This document shows, piece by piece, positions 8,601 to 62,490 of a stretch of DNA of 64,000 nucleotides (its first letter is position 1; each line of letters opens with the position of its first letter). The notes under the pieces were generated by a model. That model was not told the origin of the DNA and did no database searches. It saw only the letters and a list, made by a program, of their open reading frames with translations. The translations under genes and the position numbers were made by a program. This DNA is from Bispira polyomma (lineage: Eukaryota): contig OZ287753.1 of NCBI GenBank assembly GCA_965649765.1, positions 40,858,001-40,922,000 on the forward strand. The letters run 5' to 3'.

Positions 8601-8780
8601 TGAATTTTTACTATTGATTATTTTTAGTTAAGATATCAACACAACTTTCAAATTTTTCGAAAATTGTGATTTTTTTTGTTTTAGTTGTTATAAGTTTTAT
8701 TTTTTTTAAAAAAGAATATGGTTGTATTTTATTCAAATGTACGTCAAAGCACTGTTGAACCTTTTTTTATTGCACATGTG

Positions 8781-9084
8781 CAGCCAACCAGCACCAGTAA
8801 CTGTCACTCCCTCTATGCGAAGAGAGAGAGAGAGAGAGAGCGAGGCTTGAGTATGACACCGTTTCTCAAACTCCCCAAGGTTATTTAGTCCGTCACTGGA
8901 GATAGCACCCCAATAACAAGTGGATCACCATTTCAAGTGGTCATCTGAACCACTATGTACATGCAACATTTAAATGGCCATCCAGGCCACTTTGTACCTG
9001 CTTATACCTAGGGGTCCTAACCCGAGCTCAAACTCAGGTCCTCATGATTTTTAAGCGAGCATGTTACCGACTAGGCCCTAATGG
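8781..9084 (-). mobile_element. SINE family C copy with internal (GA)n
   Basis: cagccaaccagcaccagtaactgtc..aggcttgag.atgacacc..ccatttcaagtggtcatc; degenerate tRNA head at 9030-9084 (rc). Confidence 0.7.
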
Positions 9085-9227
9085 CATATAGTATTATGCT
9101 TATTATACCACAAATACATTAATACTGCTAAAAATATTCCTTGTTTATCTATTGAGGCCACGCACACTTAGAACTATTATTGTCACTGGTTCAAAGAATA
9201 TAAGCAATCAAAGTTTATAAAGGGGCA

Positions 9228-10836
9228 TATAATGACAAAATGATAATGCCAAAAAAGATAATGCCAGGATTATAATGCCAAAGATAATGCCAGGATTATA
9301 GTGCCCAATTTTTTTTAAAAGCCAGATATAATGCTAGAATTATAATGCCAGATTTTTCAAATTCACGTAAAGAAGTATGAGACTGGGTGAGTGAATCAAT
9401 AGTGTGAAGTGGATGGGGGCACACATGTTACAGCCCCTCCTCACTCCCCCCTTATTCCAGTAGAAGGTTTGAGGTCTTGTGAATTTGGGGCATTTGCATA
9501 TCAGCCCCTCATTACTAAATTGTTAATATTTTTCTGGAATAATTGTTTTGATTTTTAAAGAGCTTAATGTGTGCATGCACATTTGTCCCTTTTTACTCCC
9601 TTCCCACACACTGCTTCTCATTCCTGTAAAAGGGTTTTTGATGTGTGTTGGATATCTGGGTGTGGATATTCTATATCGTGGGTGTTTATTACCTTTATTA
9701 AATTTCTGAATAAATGGGGCTGTTGAAAAAACCTTCTTGATCCATATTATCAGGCGTTTAATTTTATATCAAATAAGTCCAAATTTATTACTCTGTACAA
9801 TGAATTTTTTTTATTTTCCAGAAAATATGTAAAGCTTGTTCAATGTTTGAACAAGTCAGTTGCATGTTTGTTTGTCCGTCCCAATTCAGTCTTGACCAGA
9901 CAGCTTGCTTTCTCCACTTAATTCCCTTTGTGCTATTATGTGATTTCTGTAAACTAGCATACAAAATCTTTCTAACTTTCTTAATAATGGTGTGTTTTTC
10001 ACAAGTCAAAAACCTTCTTGATTAGAATTACCAGGCGTTTATTTTGATATCAAATTTGTACACCTTTACTACTAAATTATATGTAATGACTTTTTTGTCA
10101 TGCAAAGCTAATTCACTGTTTGAAGAAGTCTTTCAAACGGTGTGGGTCCAAATGCATTCTAGACTACACAGCTTGATTAAGCCCCTCTTCTTTCAGAGCT
10201 TTTAAAAAAAACTTAGAAACTTCAAGTTTTCTTAAAAATTAAGTGTTTTTCAAAATTTAAATTCCAGCCTCACCAGCAGCTTTATCGGCATGTTAAGGCG
10301 CTAAAGATGATACTAAATATGGCTATATGTAATATAAAAATTCTATTCTTTTAAAATTCCACATTTGGTCAGTTTATTACTCCAAAGCTAGCTCTCAACT
10401 TGTTCACTTTTAATCAATCATTGTTACATAAAGGGTCAGTAAATTGTATTTTGTGTATTCATTGGGCTTAATCTCTTTTAAAATAACTTACAAATTACAA
10501 ATGATTGTAACTTTCTTAATAATGAACTACCCTACAAACTGGCAATGCTTGTAACTTTCTTAATAATGAAGAATTTTTTAAATTTTAAAACCAGCTTCAT
10601 CAGCACTTTGAGTCGTTTAAGCTGATACTAAATATGGCTTTCTTTAATTTAGAAACTCTATTCTTTTTAAAAATTCACATTTATTTACTTGATTAAGATT
10701 TAGCCCACCACATATTCACTTCTAATCACACATCGTTAAAGGGCCATGCTGAATGATATTTGTGTTATCATTTGAATCTAAAATCTCGAAATGCCTGTGA
10801 CTTTATTGATAATTAGTGTATCTAACTCATTTAAAA

Positions 10837-10914
<78 letters not shown>

Positions 10915-11064
10915 AATAAACATATCTTTATTTATATTAATAAAACAAATCTAAATGTTTAAAAACAATTTTATTAACCGTATGCATATCAGACACTGAT
11001 GAACTTGGAGAAAACCGTTGTCATTTTTATCAGTTTCTTATAAAATTTCTTTACTCTCTTCATT
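9228..11064 (+). repeat. Left inverted arm of foldback element
   Basis: Matches rc of 12108-13960 apart from about four substitutions spotted by eye, a different (TA)n length and a ~49-bp indel beside the microsatellite. Confidence 0.95.
10840..10910. repeat. (TA)n microsatellite; shorter mirror copy at 12262-12297
   Basis: Perfect TA dinucleotide run. Confidence 0.98.
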
Positions 11065-12107
11065 GGCATCACCGTCTTTACCATCCGGTTCCCCACTGTC
11101 TACTGTTTTTACCATCCGATTCCCTGCTTTCTGAACTGTATTCACCATCGGGTCCCCGCTGTCTGAACTGTCTTCGCCACTGTTTTCCCTGCTGTCTGTA
11201 CTGTCTTCACCATTCAGTTCCCCGCTGCCTACTGTCTTCACCATCCGGTTCCCTGCTGTCTGTACTGTCTTCACCATCGGTTTCCCTGTTGTCTGTACTG
11301 TCTTCACCATCGGTTTCCCTGTTGTCTGTACTGTCTTCACCATCAGGTTTCCTGTTGTCTGTACTGTTTTCACCATCGGATTCCCTGTTGTCTGTACTGT
11401 CGTCACCATTAAATTCCTCGTTGTCTGTACTTGCATCACTATCAATAAGATCATCAAACAGCTGATAATTGTGATGTACAGCTAACTTTAGAGCTTTTCT
11501 GAAGTTATAATCCTTTTCCTCCATGAGATTTTCAACCTCTCCCATGATTTCATTGTGTATGGTACTGTTTTTCAACTTACGGGTTTGTAAGCACAATATC
11601 TTTGTACTTTTTCACAATAAACTTTTTATATTTGTAAAGTAAATCGTCAGTAGCTTTCTGCCGTGATTCAAGGTTGGAGTTCCCATCTTCTTCATATTCT
11701 GTAACTAATTGACCATATTCGTCATCGTATGCATTGTAAGCCTCACTGACAATATCATCCCATCCTGATTCATCATCACTTTCCTCATCAAACCTTGACT
11801 TTTTAGAGACTTGCCCTTCGTCTTCTGGACATCCTCTTTTGAAATGTTTCTGTAAATCCATTTGTGAGGCAAATAGCAATCCACAGTCGATACAAGAACA
11901 CGGCATGGATTGCTGCTTCCCCATGCTGGTACTAGACATACAGGAGCATTTTAACGGTTGAGGTTTATCCATGATGTTGTCGCATTGACTGCAAACCGCT
12001 GAATGACTCGATTGTTTCTTTTTATTTATTTTTAAGACATCCGTCTTCAATCGATTGTCATCCGGGGTTTTTTGTTTAAGGTCCACCAATAAATAACCAT
12101 AAGTTAG
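11038..12107 (-). pseudogene. 5'-truncated, frameshifted gene: Maverick/Polinton-type packaging ATPase C-terminus + C2HC zinc finger + helical domain + acidic repeat tail
   Basis: TYGYLLVDLKQKTPDDNRLKTDVL (12104 downward) resembles the PYGYLLIDLxxxTPxxxRLRTxIF C-terminal motif of Polinton ATPases; CIDC-x12-H-x4-C finger; ORF pieces 11577-12089, 11207-11596 and 11038-11457 join by frameshifts; stop TAA 11038-11040. Confidence 0.7.
11075..11432 (-). repeat. 33-bp coding tandem repeat (DSTDNRETDGE units)
   Basis: Unit ctgtcttcaccatcggtttccctgttgtctgta at 11265, 11298 and 11331, with degenerate copies either side. Confidence 0.9.
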
Positions 12108-12257
12108 AATAAAGAGAATAAAGAAATTTTATAAGAAACTGATAAAAATGACAACGGTTTTCTCCAAGTTCATCAGTGTCTGATATGCATACGGTTAATA
12201 AAATTGTTTTTAAAAATTTAGATTTGTTTTATTAATATAAATAAAGATATGTTTATT

Positions 12258-12299
<42 letters not shown>

Positions 12300-13960
12300 T
12301 AATGTTCTGTGCAGATGAAGCAGGTTTTTAATAGTGTGTTAAGTACATTAGTTTTGAATGAGTTAGATACACTAATTATCAATAAAGTCACAGGCATTTC
12401 GAGATTTTAGATTCAAATGATAACACAAATATCATTCAGCATGGCCCTTTAACGATGTGTGATTAGAAGTGAATATGTGGTGGGCTAAATCTTAATCAAG
12501 TAAATAAATGTGAATTTTTAAAAAGAATAGAGTTTCTAAATTAAAGAAAGCCATATTTAGTATCAGCTTAAACGACTCAAAGTGCTGATGAAGCTGGTTT
12601 TAAAATTTAAAAAATTCTTCATTATTAAGAAAGTTACAAGCATTGCCAGTTTGTAGGGTAGTTCATTATTAAGAAAGTTACAATCATTTGTAATTTGTAA
12701 GTTATTTTAAAAGAGATTAAGCCCAATGAATACACAAAATACAATTTACTGACCCTTTATGTAACAATGATTGATTAAAAGTGAACAAGTTGAGAGCTAG
12801 CTTTGGAGTAATAAACTGACCAAATGTGGAATTTTAAAAGAATAGAATTTTTATATTACATATAGCCATATTTAGTATCATCTTTAGCGCCTTAACATGC
12901 CGATAAAGCTGCTGGTGAGGCTGGAATTTAAATTTTGAAAAACACTTAATTTTTAAGAAAACTTGAAGTTTCTAAGTTTTTTTTAAAAGCTCTGAAAGAA
13001 GAGGGGCTTAATCAAGCTGTGTAGTCTAGAATGCATTTGGACCCACACCGTTTGAAAGACTTCTTCAAACAGTGAATTAGCTTTGCATGACAAAAAAGTC
13101 ATTACATATAATTTAGTAGTAAAGGTGTACAAATTTGATATCAAAATAAACGCCTGGTAATTCTAATCAAGAAGGTTTTTGACTTGTGAAAAACACACCA
13201 TTATTAAGAAAGTTAGAAAGATTTTGTATGCTAGTTTACAGAAATCACATAATAGCACAAAGGGAATTAAGTGGAGAAAGCAAGCTGTCTGGTCAAGACT
13301 GAATTGGGACGGACAAACAAACATGCAACTGACTTGTTCAAACATTGAACAAGCTTTACATATTTTCTGGAAAATAAAAAAAATTCATTGTACAGAGTAA
13401 TAAATTTGGACTTATTTGATATAAAATTAAACGCCTGATAATATGGATCAAGAAGGTTTTTTCAACAGCCCCATTTATTCAGAAATTTAATAAAGGTAAT
13501 AAACACCCACGATATAGAATATCCACACCCAGATATCCAACACACATCAAAAACCCTTTTACAGGAATGAGAAGCAGTGTGTGCGAAGGGAGTAAAAAGG
13601 GACAAATGTGCATGCACACATTAAGCTCTTTAAAAATCAAAACAATTATTCCAGAAAAATATTAACAATTTAGTAATGAGGGGCTGATATGCAAATGCCC
13701 CAAATTCACAAGACCTCAAACCTTCTACTGGAATAAGGGGGGAGTGAGGAGGGGCTGTAACATGTGTGCCCCCATCCACTTCACACTATTGATTCACTCA
13801 CCCAGTCTCATACTTCTTTACGTGAATTTGAAAAATCTGGCATTATAATTCTAGCATTATATCTGGCTTTTAAAAAAAATTGGGCACTATAATCCTGGCA
13901 TTATCTTTGGCATTATAATCCTGGCATTATCTTTTTTGGCATTATCATTTTGTCATTATA
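12108..13960 (-). repeat. Right inverted arm of foldback element
   Basis: Reverse complement of 9228-11064; retains extra segment 12298-12346 and is followed by extra terminal bases 13961-13978. Confidence 0.95.
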
Positions 13961-14347
13961 ATCGTGTATACTAAACGGGCCCCTATAGTAGTGGCATACC
14001 ATAAATTTAGTCATTTGTCACAAAGAGGCCAATGGTATTTGTGTATCATTGCACATAACAACAAAAAACCACAGACTGCTTGACTTGACACTAAAACAAC
14101 TGTCAGTATAAGATGACCGGCTCATATGATGGCTGAATAACAGTGACAAATTCAGTGGAAAACTTGGGATTTCTGTCTGTCTATCTGTCTGTCTATTTGT
14201 CTGTCTATTTGTCTGTGAGATATATTGTATTTTTATTTATATATTCATTTATAAGAGTAACTTGGCATATATATCGACAGAGACTCTAAAGTTACTCTAT
14301 ATTGTGAACTTCATAAATTCAGTTCTAATAAGGTGCGATAGTGCCAA

Positions 14348-21900: not shown

Positions 21901-23546
21901 AATATCAACAAAGACAATAAATTGACTATTTGTACTTTGTATTGATCTGCCGCTTTATGGCCCAGTGGGTTACACAGTTGCTTAGGAAGGCAGAGAACCT
22001 TCATTCTATCCCAGCCTAGTGTAATTAGGTATGGGCAAATATATAATGGCTTGGAAATGCCGGTTTTCTTTCACTGGATTCTATCCCCAGTGGCAGGCTA
22101 AAGAACATTGGGAGCATCGGTAAATGATCACCCTCAAGTTTTTATTTCCAGTTAGGGGAATGCTAGTTTCTGGTGCTGGTTGGCTGTACTTTGGAAGTCA
22201 AATATAGAATTGGGTACAGATAAAGAATGATAGATACAACTGGGAGGTCACTCAGCAAAATGTATACACCTCCACCAAGATACCAAAAATTAAAACAGAT
22301 CCACTCTTCTATGATGTAAATCGGTTTTGTAGTTTTTTACCTTATTTCTGCCAACAAACAAACAAAGGATCACAGAAAAAAACTGATGCCTTGATGAAAG
22401 CAAAAAAGTCGAAAACATAGCGCAATGCTCCGTCGTTTAACAAAAAATTCAACAAAATTTAAAAAAAATTCAAATATATGTATGCCACAATTTAACTATT
22501 TATTATATATAGACTTTTTTCTATTAATTTAATAAAATAAAGAATTGTTTTTGTATTTGGAACACCTTAAAAGGTCACTAAAGTGCAATATACAGGCATT
22601 GTAAGATCAAAGTAGCAAAACATAAATTACAATTTTTTTTTAAACTCTATTTTTTCTTCTAAAGTGTCTCTTTTCTAAAAAATCATGACAGATAACCGTG
22701 CTTTGCCCATTTTACCAGACACTCAAGTGCCAATTATTACTGCAAACAGATCTACCGCTTGTGGGTGCATTGTTTTTGCAACTAGAGATGGTTCTGTATT
22801 TGCTGGTAAGCTTGAACCCCTATTTTAAAACCTCATCACTAGTTTGATTACACCAATGTCAATACAGAACTGGTGTCAAGGGGGTGACAATGTAAGCTTA
22901 TAGTTTATTGCAATCTATTGCAAGAAAAACCACATCTGATTCGAATCGATGGCTTCGTCTTACAAGCTGGGGTTATAGTTTCATAATGTTGATGAACCAT
23001 TTTGTCATTAAGTTAGGGTATAGATGAAAGGTTGAGGGTTATTTTGCTTAGTAATAACTCACTGAAATCGTGTTGTATATAAAGTACATTAGACACAATT
23101 CTTCAGGGGTTATATAGAAAAATAACAATGTTCTTTAATGAAAGTATTGAATCAGATTATGTGTATGTATCATTTGTTATGTATCTAATTGTTATAAATC
23201 AAGTTTAGCTAGCGAATGAAATAAAGCATGATTTCTCTGTCGTGGATACTTACAGACAATTCCTAATTATTACCTGTTACTTACAGTTTTTAGTTGATAG
23301 GGTAGTTTTGTCTGCAAAAGTTCAAAATAAGAAACGTGAAATTATTAGTCAAACCAAAATAATTATGTCATGTATTACTTTGATATACATTGAAGACGTG
23401 GGTAATATACTAATTAGATTTCACCAAACAATTACATTTAATATAAAGACCTATTTTCATGTCTTATTTTACATTAGATATAGTAATCCTAATCAAATGT
23501 ATACTCAGTAGCACAGTAGGTACGGTTGTCTAGTATTTAGAGCACT

Positions 23547-24150
23547 GAAGGATGACCAGCCAACCAGCACCAATAACTGTCATTCCCGTAACTAAAGACA
23601 GAGGCTTGAGCATAACCAGCCTACCTGCACCAGTAGCTGTCATTTCCATAACTAAAGACAGATAATTAAGGACGACCAACAAACCAGCACCAGTAACTGT
23701 CATTCCACTAACTAAAGACAAAGGCTTGAGCATAACCAGCCAACCTGCACCAGTAGCTCTCATTTCCATAACTAAAGACATACGACTGAGGATGACCAGC
23801 CAACCAGCACCAATAACTGTCATTCCACTAACTAAAGAAGGGGGCTTGAGGATAATCAGCCAACCTGCACCAGTAACTGTCATTTCCATAACTAAAGACA
23901 GATGATTGAGGATGACCAGCCAACCTGCACCAGTAACTGTCATTGCCATAACTAAAGACAGATGATTGAGGATGACCAGCCAACCTGCACCAGTAACTGT
24001 CATTTCCATAACTAAAGACAGATGATTGAGGATGACCAGTAAACCTGCACCAGTAACTGTCATTTCACTAACTAAAGACAGATGATTGAGGATGACCAGC
24101 CAACCAGTAACTGTCATTCCACTAACTAAAGACAAAGGCTTGAGGATGAC
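23547..24150. repeat. 60-bp minisatellite (~10 copies) derived from the 3' part of SINE family C
   Basis: Unit cagccaacc(a/t)gcaccagtaactgtcatttccataactaaagacagatgattgaggatgac; single-copy version at 8781-8858 and 31482-31543. Confidence 0.92.
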
Positions 24151-50238: not shown

Positions 50239-50881
50239 TTTTTGCTGTGAATCTCTTCTTTTATGAGCTTTCTGCAGACACTGGGTGACAATAATGACAT
50301 TTGTTTTAAGGGTGTTTTCAAACTACTTTCATACACAATGGACTTTGTCTAACTCTGTTCTCACAAATTGCCTGAAGATCTCTCTCTTTTTTGGGTTTTA
50401 AAAGTCCACAAAATCACCAGTCTAATGTTACAACTTTCAAAACATAAAAAGCTTTTAAACAACTTAAAAAATTGCCCATTTGGCACATAACTACTATTTT
50501 CACAATGTCCATAAATTTCAAGCCTGTTTTAAGTTTTAGTGCATGACGTGTATATATAGCTAGACAAACACATTTTAACATGCCCCACAAATCCCCACTG
50601 GTGTTTTTAAGGTAATTATACATCTTACATGTAACACTAGACCCTTACATTTCACAAGTTCCTATATAATTTATACACATTTTAAATCACAGTTCTTTAA
50701 TTAAACTTTTTTTTTTTTTCAGTTGCAAGTTTTGCTTTTTCGAAATTTTAAATGAAGTAAACGAAAAAAAATCTAATGTATGAGTGTATGAGTTAAGTTT
50801 GGGTTTATTTGGTTACATTTTTGGTTATATTTTTTGTTTTCTATCAATTCCTTTACTGTGTAATTACAGATAATTACAATG

Positions 50882-51513
50882 GGACACATACTGTACTGTA
50901 TTATTAGTATCAGACTCAATCCCTACACCCATCTACTGGACACATACTGTATCACTAGTATCAGACTTAACCCCTATACCCATCTACTAGACACATACTG
51001 TACTGTATTATTAGTATCAGACTCAACCCCTACACCCATCTACTAGACACATACTGTATTATTAGTATCAGACTTAACCCCTATACCCATCTACTAGACA
51101 CATACTGTACTGAATTATTAGTATCAGACTTAACCCCTACACCCATCTGCTGGACACATACTGTATTATAAGTATCTGACTTAACCCCTACACCCATCTA
51201 CTGGACACATACTGTATCACTAGTATCAGACTTAACCCCTACACCCATCTGCTGGACACATACTGTATTATAAGTATCTGACTTAACCCCTACACCCATC
51301 TACTGGACACATACTGTATCACTAGTACCAGACTTAACCCCTACACCCATCTGCTGGACACATACTGTATTATTAGTATCAGACTCAACAACTACACCCA
51401 TCTACTGGACACATACTGTATTATTAGTATCAGACTCAACAACTACACCCATCTACTGGACACATACTGTACTGTATTACTAGTATCAGACTCAACCCAT
51501 ACACCCATCTACT
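50882..51513. repeat. 51/56-bp minisatellite, 12 units
   Basis: Unit starts 50882, 50938, 50989, 51045, 51096, 51152, 51203, 51254, 51305, 51356, 51407, 51458; consensus ggacacatactgt(actgt)attattagtatcagacttaacccctacacccatctact. Confidence 0.95.
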
Positions 51514-54007
51514 TATACTCAGAAGAACTACACTAAGTCAACGCTTACATCGACACGATTTGTGACAACTGATGACAGCCAATTTGCAATTGCAAAAACA
51601 GATGTTGTTGTTCTTATATAATATGGTCTCTGATGTCCGAGTGGTAAGAAAGTTGGTCTAGTGATTAGAGGGTCCATGGTTTGTCTCTCGGTCGGGGGGG
51701 GGGGGGGGGGGGGGGAGTGCTCTGATGATAGATTAAAAGGTTTCCAGTTGCACGTGCTATTTTACCAGTAGGATAACATCCTGGACAAGATAATTAACAT
51801 TTAAAACGACTATATAAGATATTTTCATTATCTGAATGCAATATTTATTTTTTTGCTGAAGCGCAAACTTTGCACTTGTACTTCGGATGTTGGATTTGGC
51901 AAATTCTATTTGTAAAAAAAGAGAATAGGTAAAGATAAGTCAAAATAAGAGATAAAAATTTGCTGTTGCATATCAGGTGTCGTCAGACGCAGATCTTATA
52001 CACCAGAACACAGGCTAAACCACCCCCACCCGTGTAATTTTAAGGATATGAGATGGTTTTGTTAATTAAAGGAGAAAGACTGTAACCATTCCTTGAGCCC
52101 TGTGATTACCTAACAATAAATCTCTCCCTCACTATCTAAAGGGAAGGCAAGGTTTCAGATTTCTCTCATAACAAGATCTGTTACGTGTAATCATGGTCAT
52201 TAAGCTAATGCTACATCCCATAGAAAGGAAATGGCCATGTCTTCATTCAACTAGTCTTGTCAAAAATTAGCTTAAATTTCAGCTTAACGTAAAAATAGGA
52301 TTTTTTTTAATTATTTGTTCAAAAGTTAAATGACTTTCATCTATATTCTACTGATATGTCACAATATTCTGTATATATATTTGCAGTCAAAGGTGGACCA
52401 TGTCCTCATTCAATTCATTTATCTAAGTTTTAAGATTCTACTTAAAGTCATATTGATTTTTTTCAGTTAAATGATGTTACTGTATATTTTACTGATATAT
52501 GCCAATTTATGCTGTCTATATGCAGCTAAGACCTGTAGCGCAAATTGACAAAGATTCTTCTTCTAAATTTTTTGTCTCAACTAATTTGATTGGTTCAAAA
52601 TATTGCTTAAAATAATCTGATTGGCAGACACTGATTGACAAAAAAAAAAAAAAATATTAGGAACTGTATTGTAGTAATATTTTTAGATATTTTCATTCAT
52701 TTCCAAAGCAAATAAGACAGACTGACAAACTTTGGCTGTTTAACCGGGTAACAAATGGGTTGACTTGAAGCCAAAATCTGGTCATGTTTGTTGTTTTGGT
52801 GGTCTTAAAAGAGAAGTGGTCCATTTTTAAAGGTTCAACTTTTACAGACTTACTGAAGGGTTAGACAGATATGCATTATTGTGTGATCACTTCTTCAAAA
52901 GACAAATCAATATTTGTAACTGTAAAAAAAATGAGGACATAAGCATCATATTGCTATCTTAAAAACCTTATTTGTTTACAAATCTTCCATGCCTTTCACT
53001 TTATAATCCCTACACAGTCTAAAACAAATAATTCTATACAATATTAATACAGGTTATAATTAAGAACCATAAGATGAGCCGAGATATAATTACATCGATA
53101 GTTAAGTTACTAGGAGTTACATAATCTATCTGCCAGTAGGTAGGACCAAGGTTTATAATAAAACTAGATTCCAGCTGTCAGATATAAACACTAATTATAT
53201 GGCATCCAACCATGTCTAAAATTATAAAAAGAGACTTCAAAGTCTACAGTAAATTGTCTTGTGACGTCACAGGGCGGGTATTCTCGAAACAAAAAAAAAA
53301 AAAACACAAATTAAACTCCTACTCAACTCCAGACACATGCCATGTGGAAATCACTGTACACGGGAATAAACATATACTTGTGACCATTTATTTTAACAGA
53401 TATTTCAACATTGAATTAAAATATGTAGTCACTTTTTTTAGATATATGTTTACTGTAGATAAAGTTATCGAGAATCCAGAGTTGAATTGAGTATGAGTTT
53501 TCGTTTAGACTCTAAAAATGATAAAGGAAATAAGATGGCTTTGTATCTGTCAAAAGGATACAGGTGTTTTGTCTGTCTGTTGAGTAGCAACCGTCAAAGC
53601 AGTCCCACTGGCTTGATAACCAGGTAATTTGGAGGGAGGAGTCACCTTTTTGTGTGATTGTTGTGTCTAGTTTGTATATAACAAAGATTCCAAACAGCGA
53701 GGTTTACAATGTACGAGTGTATCTTACTGTGACGTATGTTATGTTCCAGTGTTGTGCTGTACAGCCTTGATAAGACTCCAGAAGTATGCATTTTTGATGT
53801 TAATTAAATGTTGAGGTTAAAGTATGTCATAGTTGGTCGATTTGATCTAATGTTATTCACCACAGAAGAAACGCTATCAAGTTGACATCATGGGCTGTGA
53901 CGTATTACAGTAGCAAAAATCGTGAAATCAGAAATCTTGTTTTATTTTGCTGAGAAAAATTATTTATATAAAAAGAAGGCAAGGTCAGATCAATTGTTCC
54001 GGGAGCA

Positions 54008-61550: not shown

Positions 61551-61820
61551 GCTTTTAAAGTGGTACAACATTATCCAGTTCGTAAATATCTCAGGGACTA
61601 TACCAGAATGTTCAAAACCAGAAGGGCACTCAGTAGAGCGCATACCTCCCACAAGGTGGAGTGCATACCTCCTACAAGATAGAGCGCTTTTAAAGTGGTA
61701 CAACATTATCCAGTTCGTAAATATCTCGGGGACTATACCAGAATGTTCTAAATCAGAAGGGCACTCAGTAGAGCGCATACCTCCCACAAGGTGGAGTGCA
61801 TACCTCCTACAAGATAGAGC
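61551..61820. repeat. 135-bp tandem duplication spanning flank and HINE 5' end
   Basis: 61551-61685 repeated at 61686-61820 with few mismatches. Confidence 0.92.
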
Positions 61821-62490
61821 GCATACCTCCCACAAGATAGAGCACATACCTCCAACAAGATAGAGTGCATACCTCCAACAAGATAGAGGGCATACCTCTG
61901 ACAAGGTAGAGTGCATACCTCCGACAAGATAGAGTGCATACCTCCAACAAGGTAGAGCGCATACCTCCAACAAGATAGAGCGCATACCTCCGACAAGATA
62001 GAGCGCATACCTCCGACAAGATAGAGCGCATACCTCTGACAAGGTAGAGCGCATACCTTCAACAAGGTAGAGCGCATACCTCCAATAAGGTAGAGGACAT
62101 ACCTCCAACAAGGTAGAGCACATACCTCCAACAAGGTGCCACATTGCCAAAACATGGAAAAAGTTACCATTTTACCCTTCTACACAGATCCACTCTAAAC
62201 AATAGTTGTCTTTTAAACAAGACACGTGACCACGGTGTGAGAAATGTTGATCTGACACCCCTCAGCTTGGTCAGGTTGATTCCTTCCAACCAATCCATAA
62301 AGGCCTTACATATTTTTTTTAACATGGCAGCACTTTCAAACATGGTCGTGCCCTTTTTTAAGTGAAATTATTTACCTCTTTCTTGGCCCATCGATCCATC
62401 TCCCCAGCTAATCTCATGTAAATCGGATGACTAGTTTTTTGTGTAATCCTGACAACAACCAAACAGATATGAGCCAGAACATAACCTCCT
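61617..62490 (+). mobile_element. HINE-like family E element with internal tandem array and nested family D fragment
   Basis: 5' accagaagggcactcagtagagcgcatacctcc; 3' tcatgtaaatcgg..agttttttgtgtaatcctg..aaacaga..aacataacctcct; family D piece at 62199-62360. Confidence 0.6.
61769..62136. repeat. 23-bp minisatellite, 16 copies
   Basis: Unit tagagcgcatacctccaacaag(a/g) every 23 bp from 61769 to 62114. Confidence 0.95.

Follow-up and report, generated by a model that had tools for sequence, protein, structure and literature searches.

The question raised by a 4.76-kb foldback in the genome of Bispira polyomma (GenBank assembly GCA_965649765.1) is what kind of mobile element carries a fragment of a viral packaging-ATPase gene between two long, almost identical inverted arms. 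The foldback lies within a stretch of 64,000 nucleotides of contig OZ287753.1 (positions 40,858,001 to 40,922,000), referred to here as the window; loci elsewhere in the genome are given in Mb. An earlier note on this DNA proposed that the element belongs to a chimeric family in which Maverick/Polinton genes travel between the ends of a different DNA-transposon superfamily, possibly a fusion like Teratorn. The ends proved to be Maverick ends. We consider it probable, at a level well short of certainty, that the element derives from a palindromic, satellite-like Maverick that changes its ends and would depend on helper Mavericks, with replication through a hairpin and packaging in helper particles.

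Maverick ends and target-site duplications

The terminal 211 bp of the element was searched against the 1.04-Gb genome and gave 44 matches among the best 40 candidates scored; the element is therefore not a single-copy sequence. Seventeen regions were examined: 13 relatives with two ends, three with one end, and the window element itself. All 13 two-ended relatives began and ended with 5'-ACTACT..AGTAGT-3' (two with one change and one with an extra unit), and all 13 were flanked by a 6-bp target-site duplication (TSD), exact in 11 and with one mismatch in two. Ten were foldbacks of 2.7-8.3 kb, which bears out the multicopy foldback with near-identical inverted arms that the earlier note had described. 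The other three were long Mavericks of 16.6, 17.1 and 19.6 kb, designated family A, with open reading frames (ORFs) for pPolB (DNA_pol_B_2, E 7.7e-32), integrase (INT; rve, 3e-10) and an ATPase. A further family-A ORF probably encodes a capsid protein, as suggested by weak support in the Atlas and by similarity to outside ORFs. All three long elements are broken copies, and the terminal inverted repeat (TIR) of family A, approximately 150 bp, was resolved in two of them. The palindromic family of the window element, with family-A ends, was designated family 1.

The arm of the window element has approximately 500 bp in common with the pPolB-side end of the family-A Maverick at C1:9.98 Mb (97% identity over about 400 bp, then 86%), and beyond this nothing was common between the arm and the Maverick interior. 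The same ends and 6-bp TSDs occur on Mavericks with pPolB and integrase; therefore the ends of the element are Maverick ends and not those of another superfamily. As a coding Maverick of this genome has these ends too, the element is a non-autonomous Maverick derivative. Tallied against an autonomous Maverick, it has the 6-bp TSD and an A32-type ATPase, and pPolB, integrase and, in the foldbacks, capsid genes are absent. A simple deletion derivative of the helper was rejected, since only about 0.5 kb is common and the ATPases of the element and of family A are 35-36% identical.

In the accessible text of PMC8097293, vertebrate Maverick ends are (AGT)2//(ACT)2, (AG)3//(CT)3 or (AC)3A//T(GT)3, with 6-bp TSDs. 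The motif found here, (ACT)2//(AGT)2, is the reverse of the first type and is not among the three given there, and this reversal explains why such ends are easily misread. The earlier note had seen neither a Maverick end motif nor a TSD, and had placed the element at 9222..13983 with GGGGC..GCCCC termini. These termini are a coincidence of flank, TSD and internal motif: GGGGC was taken for an end because it is composed of flank and TSD, and the element truly spans 9230-13992, between two copies of GGCATA. Membership of a cut-and-paste foldback or Teratorn-like group was rejected, as the long copies that share the ends are Mavericks and no DDE transposase was found. Polinton cargo enclosed by ends from an unrelated cut-and-paste superfamily would fit the missing transposase, the long arms and the GGGGC/GCCCC near the ends, but it is extremely improbable in view of the real ACTACT/AGTAGT ends and 6-bp TSDs, which are common with Mavericks bearing pPolB and integrase. 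Longer copies with the same ends, which the note had envisaged, thus exist as Mavericks and not as transposase-bearing elements.

The genome is very rich in Mavericks, with 932 first-look candidates for the packaging ATPase, and nested Mavericks were observed at C2:35.14-35.19 Mb. Four family-1 copies have identical flanks (C9:31.77, C2:7.20, C7:54.83 and C5:37.65 Mb); their sequence indicates one insertion carried inside a larger duplicated or mobile unit.

The palindrome and its packaging-ATPase gene

The longest foldback, at C13:29.51 Mb, is 8.3 kb long and consists of two arms of approximately 4 kb, each with an outward-pointing gene. Its zero-loop centre, with mirror-image repeat arrays, was also found at C7:35.52 Mb and was absent from the other palindrome copies examined. 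Aligned to the C13 arm, the shorter copies are central deletions whose breakpoints differ from copy to copy. Chromosomal palindromes usually end up losing their centre by deletion, and the alignment identifies the window copy as a version of the 8.3-kb palindrome without its centre. No pPolB or integrase was found in the window or in the 8.3-kb copy, and no transposase in the window element, in agreement with the non-autonomous status assigned to it previously.

In eight of 11 copies, the left and right arms diverged less from each other than from the nearest foreign arm (0.07% versus 1.57% in the window copy and 0.67% versus 4.08% at C7:35.5 Mb, for example), and indels occur in both arms of a copy. 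Thus the arms change together, by hairpin copying or by conversion in place. The window arms are 99.9% alike across their outer 1.5 kb, as would be expected of an assembly artefact or a one-off chromosomal inverted duplication. Such an origin is very unlikely, as ten other foldback copies are present at nine independent sites, the TSD surrounds the whole palindrome, both substitutions and indels separate the arms, and the same centre occurs in two copies.

The gene carried by the arms encodes a packaging ATPase between two zinc fingers. Its longest natural ORF (467 aa, C3:17.785 Mb) comprises a finger, a proline-rich linker, the ATPase with intact Walker motifs, a second finger and helices, and matches Pox_A32 and Adeno_IVa2 above the cut-off; only the ATPase tail remains in the window. 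Viral packaging ATPases were the best fold matches of a predicted model of this ORF (predicted local distance difference test, pLDDT, 70), with STIV2 B204 as the top PDB entry, and the C-terminal domain matched only generic C2H2 look-alikes in the Atlas. There were 315 relatives at E<=1e-20, of which the named ones came from Pinctada, Mytilus and Mya, often in several copies. A metagenome scan with an alignment returned 80 loci and one viral contig, and a scan with a single ATPase protein found nothing. In a quick tree of 72 rows, the element ATPase grouped with outside homologues, which had been picked by likeness to it (support of 99 in the Shimodaira-Hasegawa-like approximate likelihood ratio test, SH-aLRT), and stood apart from all helper ATPases. 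On sequence grounds, this indicates chimerism between Maverick lineages, with the ends of one and the ATPase gene of another. The chimeric nature proposed in the earlier note therefore stands, and the pairing of Polinton with another superfamily does not.

Pairwise omega values on the ATPase, from pairs that are not independent, were 0.19-0.22 for family 1 versus C9:15.72 Mb and 0.14-0.24 versus three hybrid elements described below (dS 0.26-0.39). These values (approximately 0.14-0.24) indicate purifying selection on the gene between end types. As in a satellite, the element's own gene is conserved between end types while replication genes are absent.

One gene between four end types

The gene occurs with four Maverick end types. 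A foldback at C3:16.15 Mb contains the gene between ends ACTACAATGGGG with the TSD GTGTTG, and one at C8:48.20 Mb contains it between ends ACTACTATGGGTC with the TSD TGTAGA. These ends match the pPolB-side ends of the Mavericks at C5:2.50 Mb and C4:96.0 Mb, respectively, the latter with INT, capsid, ATPase and the pPolB tail. Three hybrids of approximately 11 kb (C2:47.75, C3:98.08 and C11:55.94 Mb) consist of an AGTAGT-type end of a further Maverick family, family B (76-89%), followed by the gene, one array and the family-B capsid half (81-94%), and the join falls inside family B's integrase tail. These capsid-bearing elements were rejected as an unfolded autonomous parent of the palindromes, as pPolB is missing from them, their integrase is incomplete and they are hybrids with family B. 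Identity between the ATPases of helpers A and B is 48-67%, against 78-90% for the gene that lies between their ends, so the sequence comparison indicates that the gene changed ends after the two helpers had split.

Several observations were made on family B and on related elements. Nine similar pieces, each with part of the ATPase and approximately 175 bp of a family-B end, were located at C11:2.14, C11:1.82, C10:2.05, C11:2.85, C12:13.68, C8:1.91, C13:15.80, C8:3.20 and C13:4.92 Mb. Accessory ORFs similar to TBP (E 9.7e-12), BIR/IAP (E 1.5e-18) and PC4 were found at C2:47.755-47.758 Mb and in family-B Mavericks. Two family-B left ends stand back to back with the same flank at C1:4.3697 and 4.3737 Mb, which suggests an inverted segmental duplication. 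Elements of 7-10 kb bounded by TIRs, with ATPase and capsid and/or integrase matches and no pPolB match, were found at C14:25.755, C11:55.707 and C6:74.733 Mb; related ATPases from C11:7.90 and C2:38.19 Mb fall into the same clade. At C6:6.178-6.194 Mb, a capsid and ATPase element of this pPolB-less group is folded back with its genes inward, so that foldback recurs in another Maverick-related group.

The gene was found at 47 loci, of which 17 fold back and three, the hybrids, have capsid genes. With family-A queries, pPolB or INT matches were found at none of the 47. When 199 outside ORFs were used as queries on the 18 gene loci with the widest context, the only addition was the integrase tail in two hybrids. 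Another class of pPolB gave no match in these 18 loci, and three loci of that class lacked a close copy of the gene.

These searches bear on the possibility that the palindromes are passive copy-back debris, in which an autonomous Maverick with the fused ATPase folded back at the repeat array, the gene is useless to the palindromes, and the parent has been lost or was not sampled. We regard this account as the main alternative, though the less likely one. In its favour, the gene sits in arrays of capsid and polymerase-like genes in outside contigs, an old element at C10:28.79 Mb combines INT and a pPolB of the other class with an ATPase of 47% identity, and the ATPase has been lost from most copies in the genome. 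Four end types, however, would demand unseen parents, and the Mavericks of families A and B (3 and 6 copies examined) have only an ordinary ATPase. No parent appeared in a search with the arm interior (best 40 of 395 candidates; five new loci, with no Maverick genes in 20 kb each) or with the 199 outside ORFs at the 18 loci, and the array in the hybrids is joined inside an integrase tail.

Each arm of the palindrome consists of a polymerase-side Maverick end followed by the zinc finger-ATPase-zinc finger gene. In the satellite reading, the pPolB of a helper would prime at the common ends, and the displaced strand would fold at the centre into a hairpin, whose copy would be a head-to-head dimer with arms that stay alike. 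The helper integrase would then insert the two-ended dimer, hence the 6-bp TSD. A new helper may be gained by recombination with the end of a co-replicating Maverick, with the hybrids as by-products, and the element's own ATPase would probably aid entry into helper capsids or alter helper packaging. Once in the chromosome, the palindrome would later lose its centre, as in the window copy.

A number of points weigh against this reading. Genome searches scored the best candidates only, for example the best 150 of 932 for the packaging ATPase, and at many of the 47 gene loci the context on each side was no more than 2-6 kb. The Maverick at C5:2.50 Mb has pPolB and capsid matches and no INT match, and none of 12 new loci was a foldback with family-B ends. 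The nine pieces with a family-B end were probably amplified inside another repeat, as passive copies of one truncated piece. Three of the 11 copies failed the arm comparison: one was a tie, and the other two are duplicates that stem from a single insertion. Chromosomal gene conversion could also account for the likeness of the arms. Within family 1, where changes are few, omega was 0.21-0.63, and it was 0.35-0.37 versus the 80-codon piece at C10:25.57 Mb. The neighbours of the gene in same-clade contigs from other organisms are a minor capsid (L157), a major capsid (L159), PC4 (L156) and a CARD-RING protein (L175), although only two of nine such contigs had at least 2 kb downstream, too few to judge architecture. 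An adjacent ORF, L160, which gave no Pfam match, is presumably polymerase-like from its motif. To judge from these neighbours, the gene is elsewhere an ordinary part of another Maverick lineage; a lost autonomous parent is therefore possible, and such parents could have been where the observed selection took place.

The window copy, related systems and implications

Self-comparison of the window resolved the inverted arms into two pairs, 9228-10844/12344-13960 and 10875-11064/12108-12297, around an unpaired middle of 1.04 kb (Table 1). Subterminal arrays of ATAATGCC are present. Outside the (TA)n region the arms show four substitutions, one of them in the outer 1,466 bp and three near the inner edge; the remaining differences surround the (TA)n tract. 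The left arm begins 34 bp into the right-arm sequence, with GGCATA directly adjoining. The coding spacer and subterminal arrays described earlier were confirmed: the spacer encodes the tail of a Maverick-type ATPase and a zinc finger. On the minus strand, the gene remnant comprises the last 25 or so ATPase codons, the second C2H2-like finger (approximately 11830-11900), a helical domain and an acidic repeat tail.

Table 1 Features of the foldback element and its flanks (window positions).
Feature	Position	Strand	Remark
Left TSD, GGCATA	9224-9229		same letters as 13993-13998
Left arm, without terminal 34 bp including ACTACT end motif	9230-11064	+	from arm comparison
Arm part common with family A (Mavericks of 16-20 kb) at its pPolB-proximal end	9230-9731	+	starts with ATAATGCC array
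(TA)n tract	10840-10911		partner tract 12262-12298 shorter; 12298-12343 unpaired in left arm
3' part of zinc finger-ATPase-zinc finger gene	11038-12103	-	three frame pieces
33-bp tandem repeat coding for acidic tail	11071-11443		from repeat search of window
Central-deletion junction	12104-12107		about 3.35 kb missing versus 8.3-kb palindromic copy C13:29.51 Mb
Complete right arm	12108-13992	-	
Terminal motif AGTAGT (ACTACT on opposite strand)	13987-13992	+	found at the ends of all 13 two-ended relatives, with one change in two
Right TSD, GGCATA	13993-13998		directly after AGTAGT

The window copy thus represents a palindromic, non-autonomous Maverick derivative from which the centre has been deleted and in which one end is broken. 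It is young or recently converted and, having lost its centre and one tip, is probably dead or immobile. Across the region 8860-9500, in three contig-only runs of one read study, no empty insertion site was seen; one contig matched 8930-9257 exactly, only 28 bases past the junction (threshold 31), and perhaps derives from the assembly's own sample. Elsewhere in the window, tandem arrays lie at 23429-24227 (60-bp unit, with solo relatives at 8770 and 31472), 50843-51527 (51-bp unit) and 61699-62204 (23-bp unit).

Foldback, MULE and Galileo transposons and Teratorn have long inverted arms or viral cargo; unlike them, the element here has no DDE transposase family, and its TSD and ends are those of a Maverick. 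Copy-back defective genomes and hairpin plasmids derived from yeast pGKL1 have a protein-primed end doubled head to head around a hairpin centre, whereas the elements here are integrated with TSDs, heritable and equipped with a conserved gene. Phage satellites such as phage-inducible chromosomal islands (PICIs) are helper-dependent and bring their own packaging gene, which may be paralleled here; the present element differs in being eukaryotic and in having no integrase or replicase of its own, and its packaging hijack is putative. Non-autonomous Polintons are recorded in Repbase/Dfam. A full-text literature search, with most subscription papers and Repbase/Dfam outside its scope, found no description of palindromic, helper-switching Maverick derivatives.

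The element resembles the Mavericks/Polintons of PMC8097293 and PMC10748475, as far as their accessible text describes them, in its 6-bp TSD, repeated trinucleotide end, A32/IVa2-type packaging ATPase, and ends common with elements that carry pPolB and INT. It differs in having no pPolB, INT or capsid and in being entirely one inverted repeat, with arms of up to approximately 4 kb versus TIRs of 46-1,447 bp given there for vertebrate Mavericks. The Pieris polintons, in the accessible part of bioRxiv 10.1101/2025.02.07.637071, have gene-bearing TIRs of approximately 2 kb, and those without polB stay mobile. They are alike in the doubling of core genes in long TIRs and in mobility without their own polB, but keep a unique core, whereas the element here is coreless, carries a gene foreign to its helper and occurs with several end types. 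Transpovirons, from the portion of PMC5499653 available, are likewise linear TIR elements (approximately 7 kb) that descend from Polintons, require a helper and travel in its particles, as the present element may do; they differ in their superfamily 1 (SF1) helicase and in parasitising giant viruses of protists, and are described there neither as palindromes nor as ATPase carriers.

For animal Mavericks, free replication and virions have been inferred but not observed (PMC8097293 and PMC10748475, accessible text). A zero-loop palindrome, two equal origin ends and co-changing arms are the expected leftovers of protein-primed strand-displacement copying, and selection on a packaging ATPase in a capsid-less element makes sense if particles are made in trans. 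The satellite reading predicts a distinctive molecule, a hairpin of approximately 4 kb or a dimer of 8 kb. Maverick screens that require capsid genes and a length of 10-50 kb, as set out in the available text of PMC11131425, would miss such elements. We tentatively propose that animal Mavericks have satellites, with hairpin genomes of approximately 4 kb that would integrate as head-to-head dimers, carry a zinc finger-packaging ATPase as their only gene, for entry into helper capsids, and switch helpers by swapping origin ends. If this is true, the satellite copies in the genome would record, as fossils, the free strand-displacing replication of Mavericks.

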